The position numbers and the translations under genes are program-made. From the IMG/VR virus record IMGVR_UViG_2740892282_000009: a stretch of 22,170 nt of DNA; one strand, 5' to 3'. This document shows, one piece after another, positions 1-17,953 of the stretch. Every line of letters starts with the position of its first letter. Within the stretch, counting starts at the first letter, position 1. The notes beneath the pieces were generated by a model, which saw only the letters and a list, made by a program, of their open reading frames with translations, was not told the DNA's origin and did no database searches. The DNA is from a virus. Its lineage: Duplodnaviria; Heunggongvirae; Uroviricota; Caudoviricetes.

Positions 1-267
1 TGTTCAGCAGATTATCAGGCGCAACTGAAGCGGCATAATCTGCGTGGAAGTATGAGCGCAAAAGGTTGCTGCTACGATAATGCCTGCGTGGAAAGCTTCT
101 TTCATTCGCTGAAAGTGGAATGTATCCATGGAGAACACTTTATCAGCCGGGAAATAATGCGGGCAACGGTGTTTAATTATATCGAATGTGATTACAATCG
201 GTGGCGGCGGCACAGTTGGTGTGGCGGCCTCAGTCCGGAACAATTTGAAAACCAGAACCTCGCTTAG
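1..267 (+). CDS. insF: IS3 transposase OrfB, C-terminal fragment (5' truncated by window edge)
   Basis: Translation [88 protein letters not shown] matches, from memory, the end of E. coli IS3 InsF (integrase-core C-terminus). Stop TAG at 265-267. Confidence 0.8.
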
Positions 268-297
268 GCCTGTGTCCATATTACGTGGGTAGGATCA
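259..297. repeat. IS3 right terminal inverted repeat (about 39 bp)
   Basis: CTCGCTTAGGCCTGTGTCCATATTACGTGGGTAGGATCA ends with the TGATC-type terminus (as reverse complement) typical of IS3 ends. Exact IR length is recalled, not computed. Confidence 0.6.
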
Positions 298-2662
298 TAT
301 TGTCCGTGCCGAATACGTCAAAGAATCCCATCTTAACCTTATATTCACCATCAACGATGTTTGGTACTGAGTCGAATTCAGGTGCATAACTGGTAAACAA
401 TCGGCTGGTATTCCCGTTAACAATACTGATAACAGCACCAGCATAATCACGTTCAGTTGATTGTGTCCATGAAGCAAATAAATTACCAAAACCACCAGTG
501 AATGATACGCCTTGTACTAATCCACATTGTTTGTTTTCTACTGTAATTTTCACTTCCTGTGAATACGTTCCATCATTAAATCCCTGTGCGATAATACCAA
601 TAGTTGGTTTACGTACTTTTAAACGATTCATCGCAAGAGCGAAATTGAAACTATTGCTTTGCGTATAGAAAGTATCTACAAGGGTTGTACCGTTATAGAT
701 TTTAATGATGTAGTACTTGAAGTAATCAGAATACGAGCGACCATTAACGATTAAGTTCTTCTGTGAATCCCATGCAATATTAAAATCAGGTGCATCGGTG
801 ATTAACGCTGATTCAGTACGATTTGCCAGTACTACGCCAGTTACGGAAGGTAAAGCAAAGTTATAAGTCGGTACTATTCCGTTAAGGGTTACACGCTGCG
901 ATACCAAACCAAGATTGTTATACGCCTCTACCCCAAAGTCATAGCTTGCAGTGTCAGACAATCCAAACAGTTCATAAGTGGTTTTCTGTACGCCCGTTTG
1001 CCCCGCATATGTCCATGTACTGGTACTGTGAAGTTTGTAGTAAACATAATAGCCCCGTAGGTACGGATCTTCTGAAACCGTCCAGGTCAAATCAATGATA
1101 GAACCGCTGGTAGTGTTGCCCTTGCGTACTGCCTGTAGATTCGTTGGAGCCTTCACAGTAAGTTCAGGGAAGTTAATCACACCACCCGGCGACCATACGC
1201 CCGGATCTACACCGTCATACATCTGGTCAGGGGCTTCCACGCAGGTTAGCGTTACATAGCCTACGTTCTCTTGATCGGTGGCAATGTCCTTGTTCAGTAC
1301 TTTAAATTTACCTGAGATATTCAATTCGGCATTACTGACATTGATAGCATCCCATACCTTGAGATCCCATCCTTCGGATGTGGTAAAGCTGATAGTACGT
1401 AAAGCATACTTTGCCTTGAGTACATCAACGTTTGCCATCTTAGCGATGACATCAGGATCATATGACCAACTGTAATCACGACTAAGTGCGATTACCTGCC
1501 CGTCTTGCCGAACGGCTTCATCAACGGTTATATCTGAAGGTATGCGTACTACATCCGTGGTGTACATTGATTCAGGGTTAGTGAATTTGCAGTCAACCAC
1601 ATTGAAGTAGTCAGTACCGCCACTGGTTGAAATCTGTACAGCACCAACCATATTAGATTCATTAAATGACGCTACTGAAACTGTTTTACGGTCTGTCGTA
1701 ATACAAATCTGTCCGGCGTGAACATACATAATACCGCCAAATGATTGACAGATATTTTCTATGTTTTCTTTATAGCTTGATTGGTAACTGATAGCACCAT
1801 TGGCGTAGTACTCGAAAGCATCACAATAGGCTGCCGTTTCTTTGAAGATATCAAGATTAATTAATGCGGGATCAATACCCATCCCATACGTCGTATTTGT
1901 TAAGTAATCATAGATAATTGACGGTGGATTACTACTTGCTTTAATACTGCCATCCACTAAATCAAAAATACGTTGCCCTTTCATTTCAACGGTCAAAGCA
2001 AACTGATCATTAACGAGAATGTTATTTTCTAATGATTTCTGTGTTTTCTTGATAACCGTACTGATACTAACAATGCCTTTACCAAGAAATTTATTAGTCC
2101 ATTTTGGCCCTGCATATCCAGTAGCTAACGTTTTAGTACTGGTATAATCACCACCAAAGCGTACTTCTAGTTGTAGAAATTCCTGATACTTTTCCGCAAT
2201 ACTGGCTTTCGGTACTATGCCATCTTGTGTAATCGGTACGGCTAAAACTGGTTCGTTATCGATATAGATCTGTAGAATATTCTTTTCAGTACCCGCATAT
2301 GCTACAGCCTGTTCTGAAAAGAGATATTGAGAATCACTATTCGGTACGTTGTACCATGACACAATTGAACCTGTCAGTACGTATGAACCGCCTGATACCC
2401 CGTTTTTATGTGGCAACTCACCGCCATAGATAACAGGTAATCCCGTAGTTGGGGAAGTACTTCGGCTTAATGAGTCCGACACATCCCCATAACCGCTTAC
2501 GCCGATTTGCCCCAACATTGATGTAGCCACCAGTGAAGCAGCTCCCGCAGCAGCCCCCCAGCCAATCGCGGCTAATGCTGTACCGCCAGTAAAGTACACG
2601 GCTGCCGCGACAATTACCGCAGTTATGATAGCTCCAAAGAAGCCCCCTAAACTCTTACCCAT
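281..2662 (-). CDS. Lambda J-like central tail fibre / host-specificity protein, C-terminally truncated by the IS3 insertion
   Basis: 793-aa ORF with a J-like (phage-tail_3 type) region (...YGMGIDPALINLDIFKETAAYCD...) and a fibronectin-III-like segment (...TWTVSEDPYLRGYYVYYKL...). The N-terminus is Gly/Ala-rich and hydrophobic. The last codons (ILPT) and the stop are read from the IS3 inverted repeat. Start ATG at 2662 lies behind AAGGA. Confidence 0.7.
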   Translation of the reverse strand: MGKSLGGFFGAIITAVIVAAAVYFTGGTALAAIGWGAAAGAASLVATSMLGQIGVSGYGDVSDSLSRSTSPTTGLPVIYGGELPHKNGVSGGSYVLTGSIVSWYNVPNSDSQYLFSEQAVAYAGTEKNILQIYIDNEPVLAVPITQDGIVPKASIAEKYQEFLQLEVRFGGDYTSTKTLATGYAGPKWTNKFLGKGIVSISTVIKKTQKSLENNILVNDQFALTVEMKGQRIFDLVDGSIKASSNPPSIIYDYLTNTTYGMGIDPALINLDIFKETAAYCDAFEYYANGAISYQSSYKENIENICQSFGGIMYVHAGQICITTDRKTVSVASFNESNMVGAVQISTSGGTDYFNVVDCKFTNPESMYTTDVVRIPSDITVDEAVRQDGQVIALSRDYSWSYDPDVIAKMANVDVLKAKYALRTISFTTSEGWDLKVWDAINVSNAELNISGKFKVLNKDIATDQENVGYVTLTCVEAPDQMYDGVDPGVWSPGGVINFPELTVKAPTNLQAVRKGNTTSGSIIDLTWTVSEDPYLRGYYVYYKLHSTSTWTYAGQTGVQKTTYELFGLSDTASYDFGVEAYNNLGLVSQRVTLNGIVPTYNFALPSVTGVVLANRTESALITDAPDFNIAWDSQKNLIVNGRSYSDYFKYYIIKIYNGTTLVDTFYTQSNSFNFALAMNRLKVRKPTIGIIAQGFNDGTYSQEVKITVENKQCGLVQGVSFTGGFGNLFASWTQSTERDYAGAVISIVNGNTSRLFTSYAPEFDSVPNIVDGEYKVKMGFFDVFGTDNMILPT

Positions 2663-3056
2663 TGTGTTTCCTTACTCTATAAAATGTTCCATTCGTTGGT
2701 TTTGGATGAAGTTCAAAGCCATCATGGCTTTCATTCACTCCAAGTACCCGACCTGATACAACCACTGCCATAATTAAAGGGTTATCAGGATCTAGCCATA
2801 TATCACCGTCTATAACGACCTGTACGGGGTTACAGTACTGTTCAACTATCTCCCCTGTATGATTCCATCCTTCAGCCTTTAGACCTGCTATACCTTCCTG
2901 TACGCTTGTATATTCACGATTTGCTAATTGCGTAGTACCATTAATTAAATCGATAATACGTAATACAATAATATTGCAATCGTTATCTCCGAATTGATAC
3001 GGGTTATCAATGGCGTACTGAATGACATTCATAATTTCATTGTGTAGATTTTTCAT
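2655..3056 (-). CDS. Tail-tip associated protein (133 aa); possible gpK-like/NlpC-P60-like peptidase, speculative
   Basis: Sits immediately upstream of the J-like gene and overlaps its start by 8 nt. Contains a Cys (GDNDCNIIV) and downstream His residues; the call rests mainly on position. Confidence 0.35.
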   Translation of the reverse strand: MKNLHNEIMNVIQYAIDNPYQFGDNDCNIIVLRIIDLINGTTQLANREYTSVQEGIAGLKAEGWNHTGEIVEQYCNPVQVVIDGDIWLDPDNPLIMAVVVSGRVLGVNESHDGFELHPKPTNGTFYRVRKHNG

Positions 3057-4236: not shown

Positions 4237-4271
4237 TGTAACCTCAACAATCCTTGTTTCGAGTATTTATT

Positions 4272-4892
4272 ATGATTGACTTCTTAAACCACATATTGCC
4301 TATATTATCTGCTATTGCATTCCCTATAGTTGTTGTAGTAGTAACTCTTTATATAGTCTACAGAAGCGGAAGTACATCCATCATTGCTAATAAGATATGG
4401 GGGATATTCATTGGTGAGAAAAATTTCTTCAATGAAGAATTAGCATTAAAAGAAAAGGTTGAACATGATGTTGCTAAATTCAACTTTAAAGTAAATCTGA
4501 AAACCAGGAATCTCACTCAAATTGAACAATTTTATAAATTTCTGGAAAAATTCGATCTGGATATAGATAACTTCAAAGGACTTCGTGACTGCTACTTGCC
4601 CTCATTGCAGAAGGTCAAAAAAACATCTAAAAGTGAAATGTTTAATATTGGCCTGGTTGTCTTGTTAATAGGCGGTTTTTTGTTACCTATCTTCATTGGC
4701 GTGTTTATATTTAGAGACATTTCTACTTTCGACGGGGGGAAATTAGCAAATCTATTCTTTTATACGTTTTTAATTTCTGCCAGTACAGTTTTAAGTTTTA
4801 GTCAGTTACTTAGAAAGATTAAGTCAATCAGAACCCGTAAATTGATCTATAAAAAGAAATGCGAATATCTTGCAAACAGAAAGCCCATGTAG
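4272..4892 (+). CDS. Integral membrane protein (about 206 aa), opposite-strand moron inside the tail module
   Basis: The ORF track gives 4254-4892 with a TTG start; the first ATG is at 4272. Hydrophobic N-terminal helix (ILPILSAIAFPIVVVVVTLYIVY) and a second hydrophobic pair (IGLVVLLIGGFLLPIFIGVFIF). Very AT-rich, without the GTAC excess of the neighbours. Confidence 0.55.
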   Translation: MIDFLNHILPILSAIAFPIVVVVVTLYIVYRSGSTSIIANKIWGIFIGEKNFFNEELALKEKVEHDVAKFNFKVNLKTRNLTQIEQFYKFLEKFDLDIDNFKGLRDCYLPSLQKVKKTSKSEMFNIGLVVLLIGGFLLPIFIGVFIFRDISTFDGGKLANLFFYTFLISASTVLSFSQLLRKIKSIRTRKLIYKKKCEYLANRKPM

Positions 4893-10568: not shown

Positions 10569-12942
<2,374 letters not shown>

Positions 12943-12956
12943 TTATTGAGATCACT

Positions 12957-13520
12957 ATGTCAGACCGCAACAATGATTTTTCTTTGCTGGTAAAGTTACT
13001 GAATAGCTTCCTAAAGAATGAAGATATAAAGAGGCGTCTGTATTCCTTCGTCAGTAATGAAACTAATGATTGGGAAAAATGGCTACAAATTGAATTTGAG
13101 CACTTCCTTAACAAAAAAAGAAAATATGAAGTTAAACGTGAAGTTACAGCTTTTCTTGACCCTAATAATTTCCCTGCAAGCAAGCTCTCAAAAATCGATA
13201 TAATAATGAGAGAAAAAGATACCCTTTTTGAAGACTATATCTTTATTGAGCTGAAATGTACTAAGCGTTCATCTGCCTTAAAAAGAGGATTGCAAGCAGA
13301 CCATTTGAAACTCAACTCTATACAAGAATGTAAGTATCCGATGCGAAATTCTTTCTGTGTTGGTTTTCATTTATATTGCTCATCATCTGTAGTTGAAGAA
13401 ATGGACAAGTATGTAACCGATACCCTTAAAGGATCTCATGCAGTATTCAAATTATGCGAATGTCCGACAAACCGTCATTGCGATTGTGCGTTAAATGAAA
13501 TAGGTGTTGTACTTTGCTAA
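12957..13520 (+). CDS. Small PD-(D/E)xK-like nuclease-fold protein with Cys-rich C-terminus (187 aa)
   Basis: Motif ...EKWLQIEFEH ... KIDIIMRE ... (16 aa) ... YIFIELKCTKR fits a D ... E-x-K nuclease core. C-terminus CECPTNRHCDC. Divergent from the TerS gene (44-bp gap). AT-rich, low GTAC count. Confidence 0.45.
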   Translation: MSDRNNDFSLLVKLLNSFLKNEDIKRRLYSFVSNETNDWEKWLQIEFEHFLNKKRKYEVKREVTAFLDPNNFPASKLSKIDIIMREKDTLFEDYIFIELKCTKRSSALKRGLQADHLKLNSIQECKYPMRNSFCVGFHLYCSSSVVEEMDKYVTDTLKGSHAVFKLCECPTNRHCDCALNEIGVVLC

Positions 13521-13699
13521 GTGCGGTGCGGGAAGCTATCTAAACTTCACACATAACTTAAAGAATCCGGTGCCGAAAACTCGCGTTCTAAGCTGGGCTG
13601 CCGGAGTACCTTAATTAGTAATTTAACTTAATTAGCTTGCTTAAAAATACTTACATTCTATTTTACATTAGCATTATTACAATGTTATATTAATAGCAC

Positions 13700-14854
13700 A
13701 TGCACATTGTAGCTCATAAAGGAATGACCAAATTGGTAAAGAATGTATATTTCGATGAATCAGGATTCACTGGTAATAACTTACTTTCAAAAGATCAGCC
13801 TTTTTTTAGTTACGCAGCAGTCGTGACTGATGATGAGGAAAGTAAACAGTTTGTTGATTATATAATAAACAAGTACTCGATCGCAGCCGAAGAGCTAAAA
13901 GGTAGCACTCTCGTAAATAGCAAGAGATTTCAACCAGCCGTAGATGAAATACTTAATCATTTCCGTGGTCGTATGCGTGTGGTTGTAAACGAAAAAAAAT
14001 ATGCCCTCTCAGGAAAATTCTTCGAATATATTTTTGAGCCAGTATTAGCAGCTAAAAGCTCAATTTTTTACAACCTTAAATTTCACCTATTCATCTCAAA
14101 TATAATGTATTTTTCTTTAATAGCTAAGGATGAATATTCAGAACTATTACATTCGCGATTTGAAGATTTTTCACGAGGTAAAATATTGGTTAATAGTTTT
14201 ATCGAACCAGTTGTTGGTTCTAAAAATTCTGAAATTATGATGGACATTCATGATTTCGCCAAGAATAACATCTCTATAATTGAAGAAGAATATGAAGGCC
14301 TTGAGGGTACTGGGATTGATAAGTGGTTATTAGATTTGACAACGACTTCTCTTTATAATCTCCTGTGCGATATGAGTAGTAAGTTTGGTACATTGAGAGC
14401 TATATGCGACAGCTCAAAACCATTAATTACTCATCAGGACTCATTCAATGAGATGATAGGCAATGATGAGATTGTGTTCGAGACTTTTCATGATAAAAAA
14501 ATCCCGATCACATTTAAGCTATCTGAGCCAATGATTCTTTCTGATTCTAAAGTCACGCATGGTATACAAATTGCGGATGTGGTAGCTGCGGCTAGCATTT
14601 ATGTCCTTAACAAGAAAAAATCGAAAGAAAAATATCATTCTAAATGGCTAAATCATTTTGAAGATGAGATTTTTTATTGGCAGTGCTGTGTTGTTCCCAC
14701 ACCAGAAAACCTTGACCCTAAAAATGTTAACAACCATTTAAATAGATATATTTTGCAAGAAATTGCAGAGCGAAGCAGAAACTCAACTCCTGTTTTAGAT
14801 GATATTGAGAAGGATATAATAAGAATTTCCAGAACATTAGCCATGCTACGTTGA
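13700..14854 (+). CDS. DUF3800-like protein (384-aa ORF; probable start at ATG 13724, 376 aa)
   Basis: N-terminal VYFDESGFTG matches the DESG-type signature I associate with DUF3800 (function unknown). AAAGGA immediately precedes ATG 13724. Followed by a strong hairpin terminator. Confidence 0.5.
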   Translation: MHIVAHKGMTKLVKNVYFDESGFTGNNLLSKDQPFFSYAAVVTDDEESKQFVDYIINKYSIAAEELKGSTLVNSKRFQPAVDEILNHFRGRMRVVVNEKKYALSGKFFEYIFEPVLAAKSSIFYNLKFHLFISNIMYFSLIAKDEYSELLHSRFEDFSRGKILVNSFIEPVVGSKNSEIMMDIHDFAKNNISIIEEEYEGLEGTGIDKWLLDLTTTSLYNLLCDMSSKFGTLRAICDSSKPLITHQDSFNEMIGNDEIVFETFHDKKIPITFKLSEPMILSDSKVTHGIQIADVVAAASIYVLNKKKSKEKYHSKWLNHFEDEIFYWQCCVVPTPENLDPKNVNNHLNRYILQEIAERSRNSTPVLDDIEKDIIRISRTLAMLR

Positions 14855-16432: not shown

Positions 16433-17224
16433 TCATTTATCCCAAAGCGTCATAAGTTTACTCTTAATCTCATCCGTTATTGCTGAGTGATTCGACTTAT
16501 AGATGATTTTTAGTGCTTCAACGTTGTCGCCATTCTTGAATACTCTTCGCATTGAAGATGCCTTTGTTCTTGCAGTACTTTCCTTCCATTCTGGATGGTC
16601 AGTTACCATCTTTTCAACAAGATCAGTTGTGTTCATACCACTTTCAACATACTGATAGTACTCAATAAATGTCTGCATTCCTATTGTCTGTAGATCCCGG
16701 ATAGTGTTTGAATCTGGCTTCACCGTGATCTCTTCCTTTGAACGTTCAGTGTCTGGATCAATAAATTCAATGATGTCTGTTACACGTGGATCGTTAAGTA
16801 ATAAATTGCTGATTCTTAAAGTGTAACCATTCTGGTGCTCATTATAAAAACCATATTCCTTCACTAATTCATGTGGTATGGATACAGCATAACGAATTGA
16901 GAAATCATGGTTATATATTACGGCAATGAGCTCATCGAATTGGTTCAGATCATAATTTCTGATAATCCCAAGAATTAATGATTTGTTTTTTAAATTATTC
17001 TTACGAGACTTAATCTGAATTTTTCGATCATCAATCGTTGTAGCGTCATACCCTTTAGTACTAGGTGCAGCCAGTACCATTTGCATCTTATCCGCAACCA
17101 GCCATTCAGTGTACTCACTGATAGGATTGTTTCTGGTTCTGATAACCTCTCGTCGTTCTAACTCATCAAGCGTCAACTGATTCAGTTGCATCAATTCGAC
17201 GTTACTCAATTGTGATAAATCCAT
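16433..17224 (-). CDS. Hypothetical protein (263 aa), translationally coupled partner of the HNH nuclease
   Basis: Its ATG (17224-17222) abuts the stop of the upstream gene (TAA 17227-17225). Possible degenerate nuclease-like segment (GYDATTIDDRKIQIKSRK); otherwise unrecognised. Confidence 0.4.
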   Translation of the reverse strand: MDLSQLSNVELMQLNQLTLDELERREVIRTRNNPISEYTEWLVADKMQMVLAAPSTKGYDATTIDDRKIQIKSRKNNLKNKSLILGIIRNYDLNQFDELIAVIYNHDFSIRYAVSIPHELVKEYGFYNEHQNGYTLRISNLLLNDPRVTDIIEFIDPDTERSKEEITVKPDSNTIRDLQTIGMQTFIEYYQYVESGMNTTDLVEKMVTDHPEWKESTARTKASSMRRVFKNGDNVEALKIIYKSNHSAITDEIKSKLMTLWDK

Positions 17225-17953
17225 TTACTCGCTCCAAAAGGTCATTTTCTCTTTCAAGTCTGCAATTGAAAGTACTTTGCTCCCACGATGTACCATTGCA
17301 TGGCAATTTGGACATAATGGGACCATATCTGTTACGGGGTTGACCACATAGTTTTCCCCAATCGTATGAAGCGGCTTGATGTGATGTACATGAATGAATC
17401 CACGGCCATGTGTACCATAGACCTTCTCAAAATCGAAACCACAGCATTTACAGGTAGTACCGTGATGTTGGATGCAGGCTTGTCTGGCCTTTGGATCGCG
17501 TTCGTAGTAGTTCACTGTTACTTGAGTCTTTGCACCTTCAACAAAACTCTCTCCTGAAGGAATTTCATCAGGGAATGGATTAGGTAAGAAGTCTGCATAC
17601 CAAACAACGCCTTCTTTACGCAGATATCGCTTGTTTAATTTACGCTCAAAATCCTTGATAACTGCAATTTCAGGGTTATCCGGGTGTTCTGCGAAAACCA
17701 TATTGAAGGTGTAAAGTTCGTAGCCTTCATGGACTAACCTGACGTGTTCCAGTGCCTGGGTGTATCCCAGTTGTTTTTTGTTGTTTGAGTTGTACTCCCA
17801 ACGCTCTCGAAGAATGACTGACCGCTCTTGTTCACTCTCAACATCCCATGACCCAAAGATGACCATCTTCTTTTCATGGTTAACAAATGACCAACTCCAC
17901 GTCCAGTTACTGCAAGTAGCTCCGTGCGACTGGATGAATTGCTTCCGGTTCAT
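17225..17953 (-). CDS. McrA-like HNH nuclease with an unassigned N-terminal domain (242 aa)
   Basis: C-terminal HNH signature YERDPKARQACIQHHGTTCKCCGFDF...GFIHVHHIKPL...MVPLCPNCHAMVH, compared with E. coli McrA from memory. The Trp-rich N-terminal 150 aa (SNWTWSWSFVNHEKKMVIFGSWD...) may be a modified-base reader (EVE/SRA-like); this is a guess. Confidence 0.65.
   Translation of the reverse strand: MNRKQFIQSHGATCSNWTWSWSFVNHEKKMVIFGSWDVESEQERSVILRERWEYNSNNKKQLGYTQALEHVRLVHEGYELYTFNMVFAEHPDNPEIAVIKDFERKLNKRYLRKEGVVWYADFLPNPFPDEIPSGESFVEGAKTQVTVNYYERDPKARQACIQHHGTTCKCCGFDFEKVYGTHGRGFIHVHHIKPLHTIGENYVVNPVTDMVPLCPNCHAMVHRGSKVLSIADLKEKMTFWSE

Follow-up and report, generated by a model that had tools for sequence, protein, structure and literature searches.

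The 22,170-nucleotide stretch of viral DNA recorded as IMGVR_UViG_2740892282_000009 (hereafter, the window) begins within a copy of the insertion sequence (IS) IS3, and a gene for a J-like tail-tip fibre protein runs on the minus strand directly into that copy. This arrangement raises the question of whether the IS has truncated the fibre gene, where the missing end of the gene is located, and what its loss means for the element. As described below, IS3 very probably transposed into codon 789 of a 1067-codon fibre gene of an Escherichia coli prophage, and the element is most likely tail-less and decaying.

The open reading frame (ORF) of the fibre gene consists of a native part, which comprises codons 1 to 788 and the first base of codon 789 (window 298-2662), and an IS3-derived part, which comprises the rest of Met789, the residues ILPT, and the stop codon (window 281-297). 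In the orientation of the gene, the junction reads GAC AAT A/TG ATC CTA CCC ACG TAA, with the slash at the boundary; Asn788 is the last native residue of the 793-residue product, and M-I-L-P-T-stop is read out of IS3. The Met789 codon is the reverse complement of 296-298 and contains one base of the gene (298) and two bases of IS3 (297 and 296), while the stop codon TAA (283-281) is IS3 sequence. The IS3 sequence ends at window 297, together with its right terminal inverted repeat, as CCTGTGTCCATATTACGTGGGTAGGATCA, and the closing letters of the repeat are GGGTAGGATCA. IS3 and the fibre gene are convergent. The initial annotation, which was made from the letters of the window, had described a right repeat ending at 297, a minus-strand J-like ORF running into it, a Met codon across the junction, and ILPT and a stop codon supplied by IS3; all of these coordinates hold, exact to the base.

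The first 297 nucleotides of the window match annotated IS3 copies from thousands of E. coli genomes with 98-99% identity (E ~1e-151), and the matching features in complete genomes carry the annotation "IS3-like element IS3 family transposase." Window 1-267 encodes the final 88 amino acids of the transposase OrfB. The same 297 nucleotides are 100% identical to a full IS3 copy in L002, a 4.79-Mb E. coli contig that spans the whole insertion and was used to read its far side. In L002, the IS occupies 12366-13623 (1258 bp), its terminal repeats lie at 12366-12404 and 13585-13623 (39 nt, 72% complementary), and the copy matches the Pfam domains HTH_Tnp_1, HTH_21, rve, rve_3, and rve_2. The present copy shares with the IS3 of E. 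coli (IS3 family, IS3 group; InsE/InsF) 98-99% identity, the length of 1258 bp, 39-nt imperfect repeats beginning with TGATC, a 3-bp target duplication, and the transposase domains HTH_Tnp_1, HTH_21, and rve, whereas the copy compared differs by a single conservative change near the OrfB C terminus (ENQNLA versus ENKNLA). The DDE (rve) transposase would be made from orfA and orfB by a -1 frameshift, and a "programmed frameshift" is given in the annotation of E. coli IS3 and IS3-family copies. Members of the IS3 family produce target duplications of 3-5 bp and transpose by a copy-out/paste-in pathway (PMC10379815). Many of the E. coli IS3 matches reached 15 nt beyond the end of the IS, and a shared IS3 target was suspected; this was rejected, as the alignment there is a gapped chance resemblance.

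The far side of the insertion accounts for the rest of the gene. The window is 100% identical to L002 and to a second assembly, L003, over 420 nt covering the junction. The initial annotation had proposed that a 3-bp target-site duplication be looked for on the far side of the IS, and in L002, ATA directly flanks the 1258-bp element on both sides (12363-12365 and 13624-13626). Subtraction of IS3 and one ATA from L002 gives GAC AAT ATT CAG TAC (D-N-I-Q-Y), in frame and as in the uninterrupted alleles of the gene. The open frame on the far side (L002 13626-14465) corresponds to residues 789-1067, aligns without gaps to the uninterrupted homologue, ends at an identical last residue, and contains the PF09327 domain. 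The two halves add exactly (788 + 279 = 1067 residues), and the native distal end is indeed displaced beyond the IS, as had been supposed, with residues 789-1067 still open. The exact 793-residue product is found on 49 contigs and the 285-residue far-side product on 44, and all of these contigs bear the name Escherichia or E. coli. An in-frame TTG within the left IS end is the start codon assigned to the far-side ORF. No Shine-Dalgarno sequence precedes this TTG in L002, and no promoter-like site was found when the left IS end was searched for an outward promoter of the displaced fragment; independent expression of the far-side ORF is therefore unlikely.

The E. coli alleles that are 99% identical to the window protein, which belong to its 90%-identity cluster, are 1067 residues long, and FGTDNIQYCPEQ is their reading across the insertion site. 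The 1067-residue "phage tail tip fiber protein" of E. coli 14EC007 aligns without gaps (84% identity over residues 1-789) and then continues for 278 more residues. The truncation of the J-like gene by IS3 is thus borne out, as the homologue alignment halts at residue 789 and the rest of the protein is found beyond the IS. Among the 120 best database matches, complete homologues are 1067-1350 residues long, carry PF09327 (Phage_Tail_Tip) at the C terminus, and are found in Klebsiella, Enterobacter, Kosakonia, Scandinavium, and others. The shorter entries among these matches are mostly labelled partial or lie on short contigs, and several of them carry PF09327, which places their cut on the N-terminal side. 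A natural ending of the protein near residue 789, which the initial annotation had named as a finding that would speak against a truncation, is not seen, because the complete homologues listed are at least 1067 residues long. The related idea that the ORF represents a naturally short fibre protein that abuts the IS by chance draws on the frame being open over 793 codons and on nothing else. IS3 supplies the stop codon and the five codons before it, the 99%-identity alleles run 278 residues farther, and the remainder of the gene follows in frame past the IS. We regard the short form as refuted by the far-side fragment of L002, the 1067-residue alleles, and the lengths of the complete homologues, and its probability is practically nil.

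Short-read contigs often break or are mis-joined at IS copies, and many of the contigs examined here end in an IS, so that a junction of this kind might be an assembly chimera arising from the repeat at the contig end. On the other hand, the junction-spanning protein is present on 49 contigs from independent samples, and the 4.79-Mb contig crosses the entire IS with a perfect 3-bp duplication; an assembly artifact can be given only a vanishingly small probability. It is likewise unlikely, though conceivable, that the genome of the window does not contain a simple insertion and that the 3' part of the gene has been relocated or lost, either through recombination between IS3 copies or through a deletion that the IS caused next to itself. 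The window and assemblies of the L003 type end inside the IS, the genome contains several IS3 copies (for example, the second copy in the terminase gene of L002), and IS elements have replaced the whole structural module in AREA_C483. However, the junction and the 420 nt around it are identical to those of L002, in which the duplication and the 3' fragment are intact, and the half-proteins are about equally frequent (49 and 44 contigs). A simple insertion of IS3 into codon 789 is the reading followed below.

The fibre ORF of the window matches PHROG 31 "central tail fiber J" (E = 3.6e-46). The PF13550 (Phage-tail_3) domain at residues 294-445 passes its cut-off by a small margin (24.3 bits versus 23) and is supported by the PHROG 31 match, and a fibronectin type III (FN3) domain, PF00041, is found at residues 505-585 (25.4 bits versus a cut-off of 25). 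PF09327 is absent from the window ORF, whereas it is detected in the uninterrupted homologue (E = 2.9e-21). The insertion site lies directly after the FN3 region, and the whole distal fibre is removed: the 279 lost residues, about the last quarter of the protein, consist of a helical segment and a central straight fibre domain. Among the phmmer matches to the lost part are the chains 9l9p_S, 9ze4_N, and 7z4b_EA from solved structures of phage tails; 9ze4_N bears the name "Tip attachment protein J central straight fiber domain." Lambdoid J proteins resemble the lost part at their C termini, with 35-38% identity. The homologue ends together with the straight fibre alignment (residue 1065 of 1067, opposite residue 1166 of 1172 of 9l9p_S), and no extra domain is evident.

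The lambda J protein (gpJ) has the layout FNIII-AHS-CSF-RBD, and its C terminus sets the host specificity (PMC11101478). The present protein has in common with gpJ the Phage-tail_3 domain, the FN3 modules, and the helical segment followed by PF09327, and the position of the gene is also shared: it follows the genes of the tape measure and the distal tail protein and is the final large gene in the tail module. Only over its last ~250 residues is the protein directly similar to lambdoid J (35-38% identity), and the N termini differ, with the hub start of gpJ standing against a Gly/Ala-rich hydrophobic segment in the present protein. By analogy with gpJ, the lost distal tail tip may have a receptor-binding role. 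The hydrophobic segment covers fibre residues 1-55 (window ~2498-2662, minus strand; MGKSLGGFFGAIITAVIVAAAVYFTGGTALAAIGWGAAAGAASLVATSMLGQIG). Predicted membrane helices have been described for lambda gpI (PMC11101478). The hydrophobic start of the present fibre recalls these helices, and a separate gpI-like gene is not seen in the locus; a gpI-J fusion is possible.

No relative of the fibre gene was found at the DNA level by blastn among 50,697 deposited phage genomes. Its phage relatives are distant and detectable at the protein level only, the best being Escherichia phage DCP80 (30% identity). DCP80 (L013, PQ671644.1 1-24000) is classified in the Straboviridae, and its terminase, portal-sized, protease-capsid-sized, and J-like genes are ordered as in this prophage; the DCP80 record may be mixed or misclassified.

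A second lesion lies farther along the window, in a 367-residue ORF that is an in-frame fusion of two tail genes. Residues 1-168 derive from the N terminus of a 928-residue protein at the major tail position, and residues 170-367 are the C-terminal 198 residues of a 736-residue tape measure. The PHROG matches are split in the same manner (major tail at residues 1-153, tape measure at residues 173-366), as are tblastn comparisons with phages. The N-terminal part is 57% identical to the start of a 920-residue protein of the Buttiauxella relative L014, and residues 170-367 are 89% identical to residues 542-739 of its 739-residue tape measure. Two intact E. coli prophages, L016 and L017, occupy the same chromosomal site and contain a 99%-identical, uninterrupted fibre gene. 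Where the window has the fusion ORF alone, they carry genes for proteins of 928 (L016) or 943 (L017), 154, 99, 121, and 736 residues. In a base-level alignment, L016 2016-7166 (5,151 bp) is missing from the window, in frame; the deletion took most of the gene at the tail tube position together with three small genes of the tail, and it shortened the tape measure by 73%. With such a deletion through its tail genes, the element would be unable to build a tail even if the fibre gene were intact. The initial annotation had held the element to be probably defective for adsorption because of the IS3 insertion, which is true, but beside the point in an element that lacks the core of its tail module.

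The gene at the major tail position in the intact relatives (L016 1509-4295 and L017 1455-4286; 928-943 residues) matches Peptidase_S74, the intramolecular chaperone found in tail spikes and fibres; such a match is unusual for a gene at the tail tube position. The 154-residue gene that follows it in L016 and L017 gives a weak PF08813 match.

The prophage is inserted between mipA and yeaG, with a large gene of the recombinase family beside yeaG. The host is E. coli, as the flanking mipA-yeaE-yeaD region is 100% identical to E. coli chromosomes and the databases name the proteins E. coli. Wherever a sampled contig has the fusion and extends as far as the fibre gene's end, it contains the 793-residue form or one that is damaged further, and all sampled contigs that have the truncated fibre and reach far enough upstream contain the fusion; a contig with one lesion but not the other was not found in the 20 places sampled. 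Because they always occur together in these contigs, the two lesions appear to have been fixed together in the lineage. Further damage differs between sublineages. L002 and others contain a second IS3 in the terminase gene (L002 413-1575) and a frameshift by which the fusion ORF is broken into parts of 219 and 148 residues, L026 contains an IS1 at codon 449 of the fibre gene (L026 6092-6574), and AREA_C483 (L012 10809-23191) has lost the region from the terminase to the fibre, where IS3-family and IS5 elements and a group II intron are found.

Cryptic prophages disrupted by IS elements are a general phenomenon in E. coli and Shigella, the cryptic prophages of K-12 being examples. The present element shares with them several independent lesions (IS insertions, an internal deletion, and frameshifts) that differ between sublineages, whereas it belongs to a family at the mipA-yeaG site whose fibre gene lacks a DNA-level relative among the deposited phage genomes. 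Its intact relatives form a prophage family that is widespread in the Enterobacteriaceae.

The most probable course of events is as follows. The 1258-bp IS3 moved by the copy-out/paste-in pathway into codon 789 of the fibre gene, duplicating ATA, and translation now passes from Asn788 into the right inverted repeat, adds M-I-L-P-T, and stops. The truncated product keeps the N-terminal, Phage-tail_3, and FN3 parts and is without the last 279 residues, which comprise the helical segment and the trimeric central straight fibre of the distal tail tip. The corresponding 279 codons persist intact past the IS, with no promoter or ribosome-binding site detectable before them. The IS3 insertion is one of at least two inactivating lesions that were fixed together, the other being the 5,151-bp deletion.

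Several points weigh against parts of this explanation. The window starts inside IS3, and the far side was read from another assembly, L002, rather than from the genome of the window itself; L002 also differs from the window in having the extra IS3 in the terminase gene and a frameshifted fusion gene. The sampled contigs are compatible with either order of the IS3 insertion and the deletion. The initial annotation had stated that the C-terminal, receptor-binding end of the protein is lost. The loss of the distal fibre, with its helical segment and straight fibre, stands, while the function given to it is something that we infer, since lambda gpJ has a receptor-binding domain after the straight fibre and no separate domain of this kind is evident in the present protein. 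Small downstream genes (98 residues, and 218 residues with DUF8377) could instead supply receptor binding.

The split gene might nevertheless still function, either as the truncated product or as both halves, for the element or for its host, or the precise loss of IS3 might act as a reversible fibre switch. Both halves are still open reading frames, the in-frame TTG in the left IS end opens the far-side ORF, and the head genes are also intact ORFs. Yet only five residues are added by the IS and the trimerising fibre domain is gone, the far-side fragment has neither a promoter-like site nor a Shine-Dalgarno sequence, and the tail module is deleted. The further IS hits gained by sublineages in the fibre and terminase genes are a pattern of neutral decay, and precise loss of an IS is rare (PMC10379815). 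We therefore consider continued function very unlikely. A functional chimeric ending, which the initial annotation had offered as an alternative, is itself very unlikely because the IS contributes only five residues. With similarly little probability, the doubly damaged prophage could have been retained for a reason, with an intact terminase, portal, and capsid and a contribution from the split fibre, which would amount to domestication rather than decay. The lesions read from the sequence argue for a loss of function of the element. The element is a tail-less, decaying cryptic prophage with several lesions; the IS3 insertion in codon 789 is among them, but the defect of the element does not stem from it.

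The features of the window are listed in Table 1. The DUF6950 gene, the upstream neighbour of the fibre gene, is kept in all related loci. The intact relatives L014, L016, and L017 contain, in order, a tape measure of 736-739 residues, the distal tail protein (185 residues), and proteins of 207 and 133 residues, followed by the 1067-residue fibre gene. Farther along the window are a lambda-type portal, a protease-capsid fusion, and a gpA-type terminase.

Table 1. Positions of the IS3 end, the truncated fibre gene, and neighbouring features in the window
Feature	Position	Strand	Remarks
IS3 3' end	1..297	+	Last 88 codons of OrfB and right terminal inverted repeat; the window begins within the element
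IS3 right terminal inverted repeat, 39 nt	259..297		Closes with ...GGATCA at 297
J-like tail-tip fibre gene, truncated, 793 codons	281..2662	-	PF13550, fn3, PHROG 31
Target-site duplication, one 3-bp copy	298..300		TAT on the plus strand, ATA in the orientation of the gene
DUF6950 protein, 133 aa, upstream neighbour of the fibre gene	2655..3056	-	PF22262, E = 5.5e-9
Tail protein, 207 aa	3056-3679	-	phrog_2048 "tail protein"
Distal tail protein, 185 aa	3679-4236	-	phrog_1302 "distal tail protein"; PF21430, pb9 B-domain
In-frame fusion ORF, 367 aa	4900..6003	-	Fusion junction between 5497 and 5496

Between the tape measure remnant and the distal tail protein, a DUF6216 gene (212 residues, window 4254-4892) lies on the opposite, plus strand. 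This arrangement is kept in the intact relatives L016 and L017, and the gene resembles a moron-type passenger. A DUF3800 protein of 384 residues and a DUF6998 protein with an adjacent HNH endonuclease are encoded in the early or accessory part of the prophage (window 13700-14854, plus strand, and 16433-17953, minus strand). The DUF6998-HNH pair recurs in unrelated E. coli genomes with ~83% identity and may be a mobile or defence-type cassette.

IS-mediated pseudogenisation of a prophage gene is a textbook case of a kind that is already known, and the finding has little significance beyond annotation. In the databases, the "phage tail protein" WP_249437062.1 (793 residues) and the "phage tail tip fiber protein" WP_053263596.1 (285 residues) are the halves of one pseudogene split by IS3, and the nearby 367-residue "hypothetical protein" is a deletion scar. 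The fibre gene, which is without a DNA-level match in deposited phage genomes, may interest phage taxonomists. For the biology of the element, the split pseudogene and the deletion scar together mean that the mipA-yeaG prophage would be non-viable in this E. coli lineage, for which the shared lesions can be used as markers.

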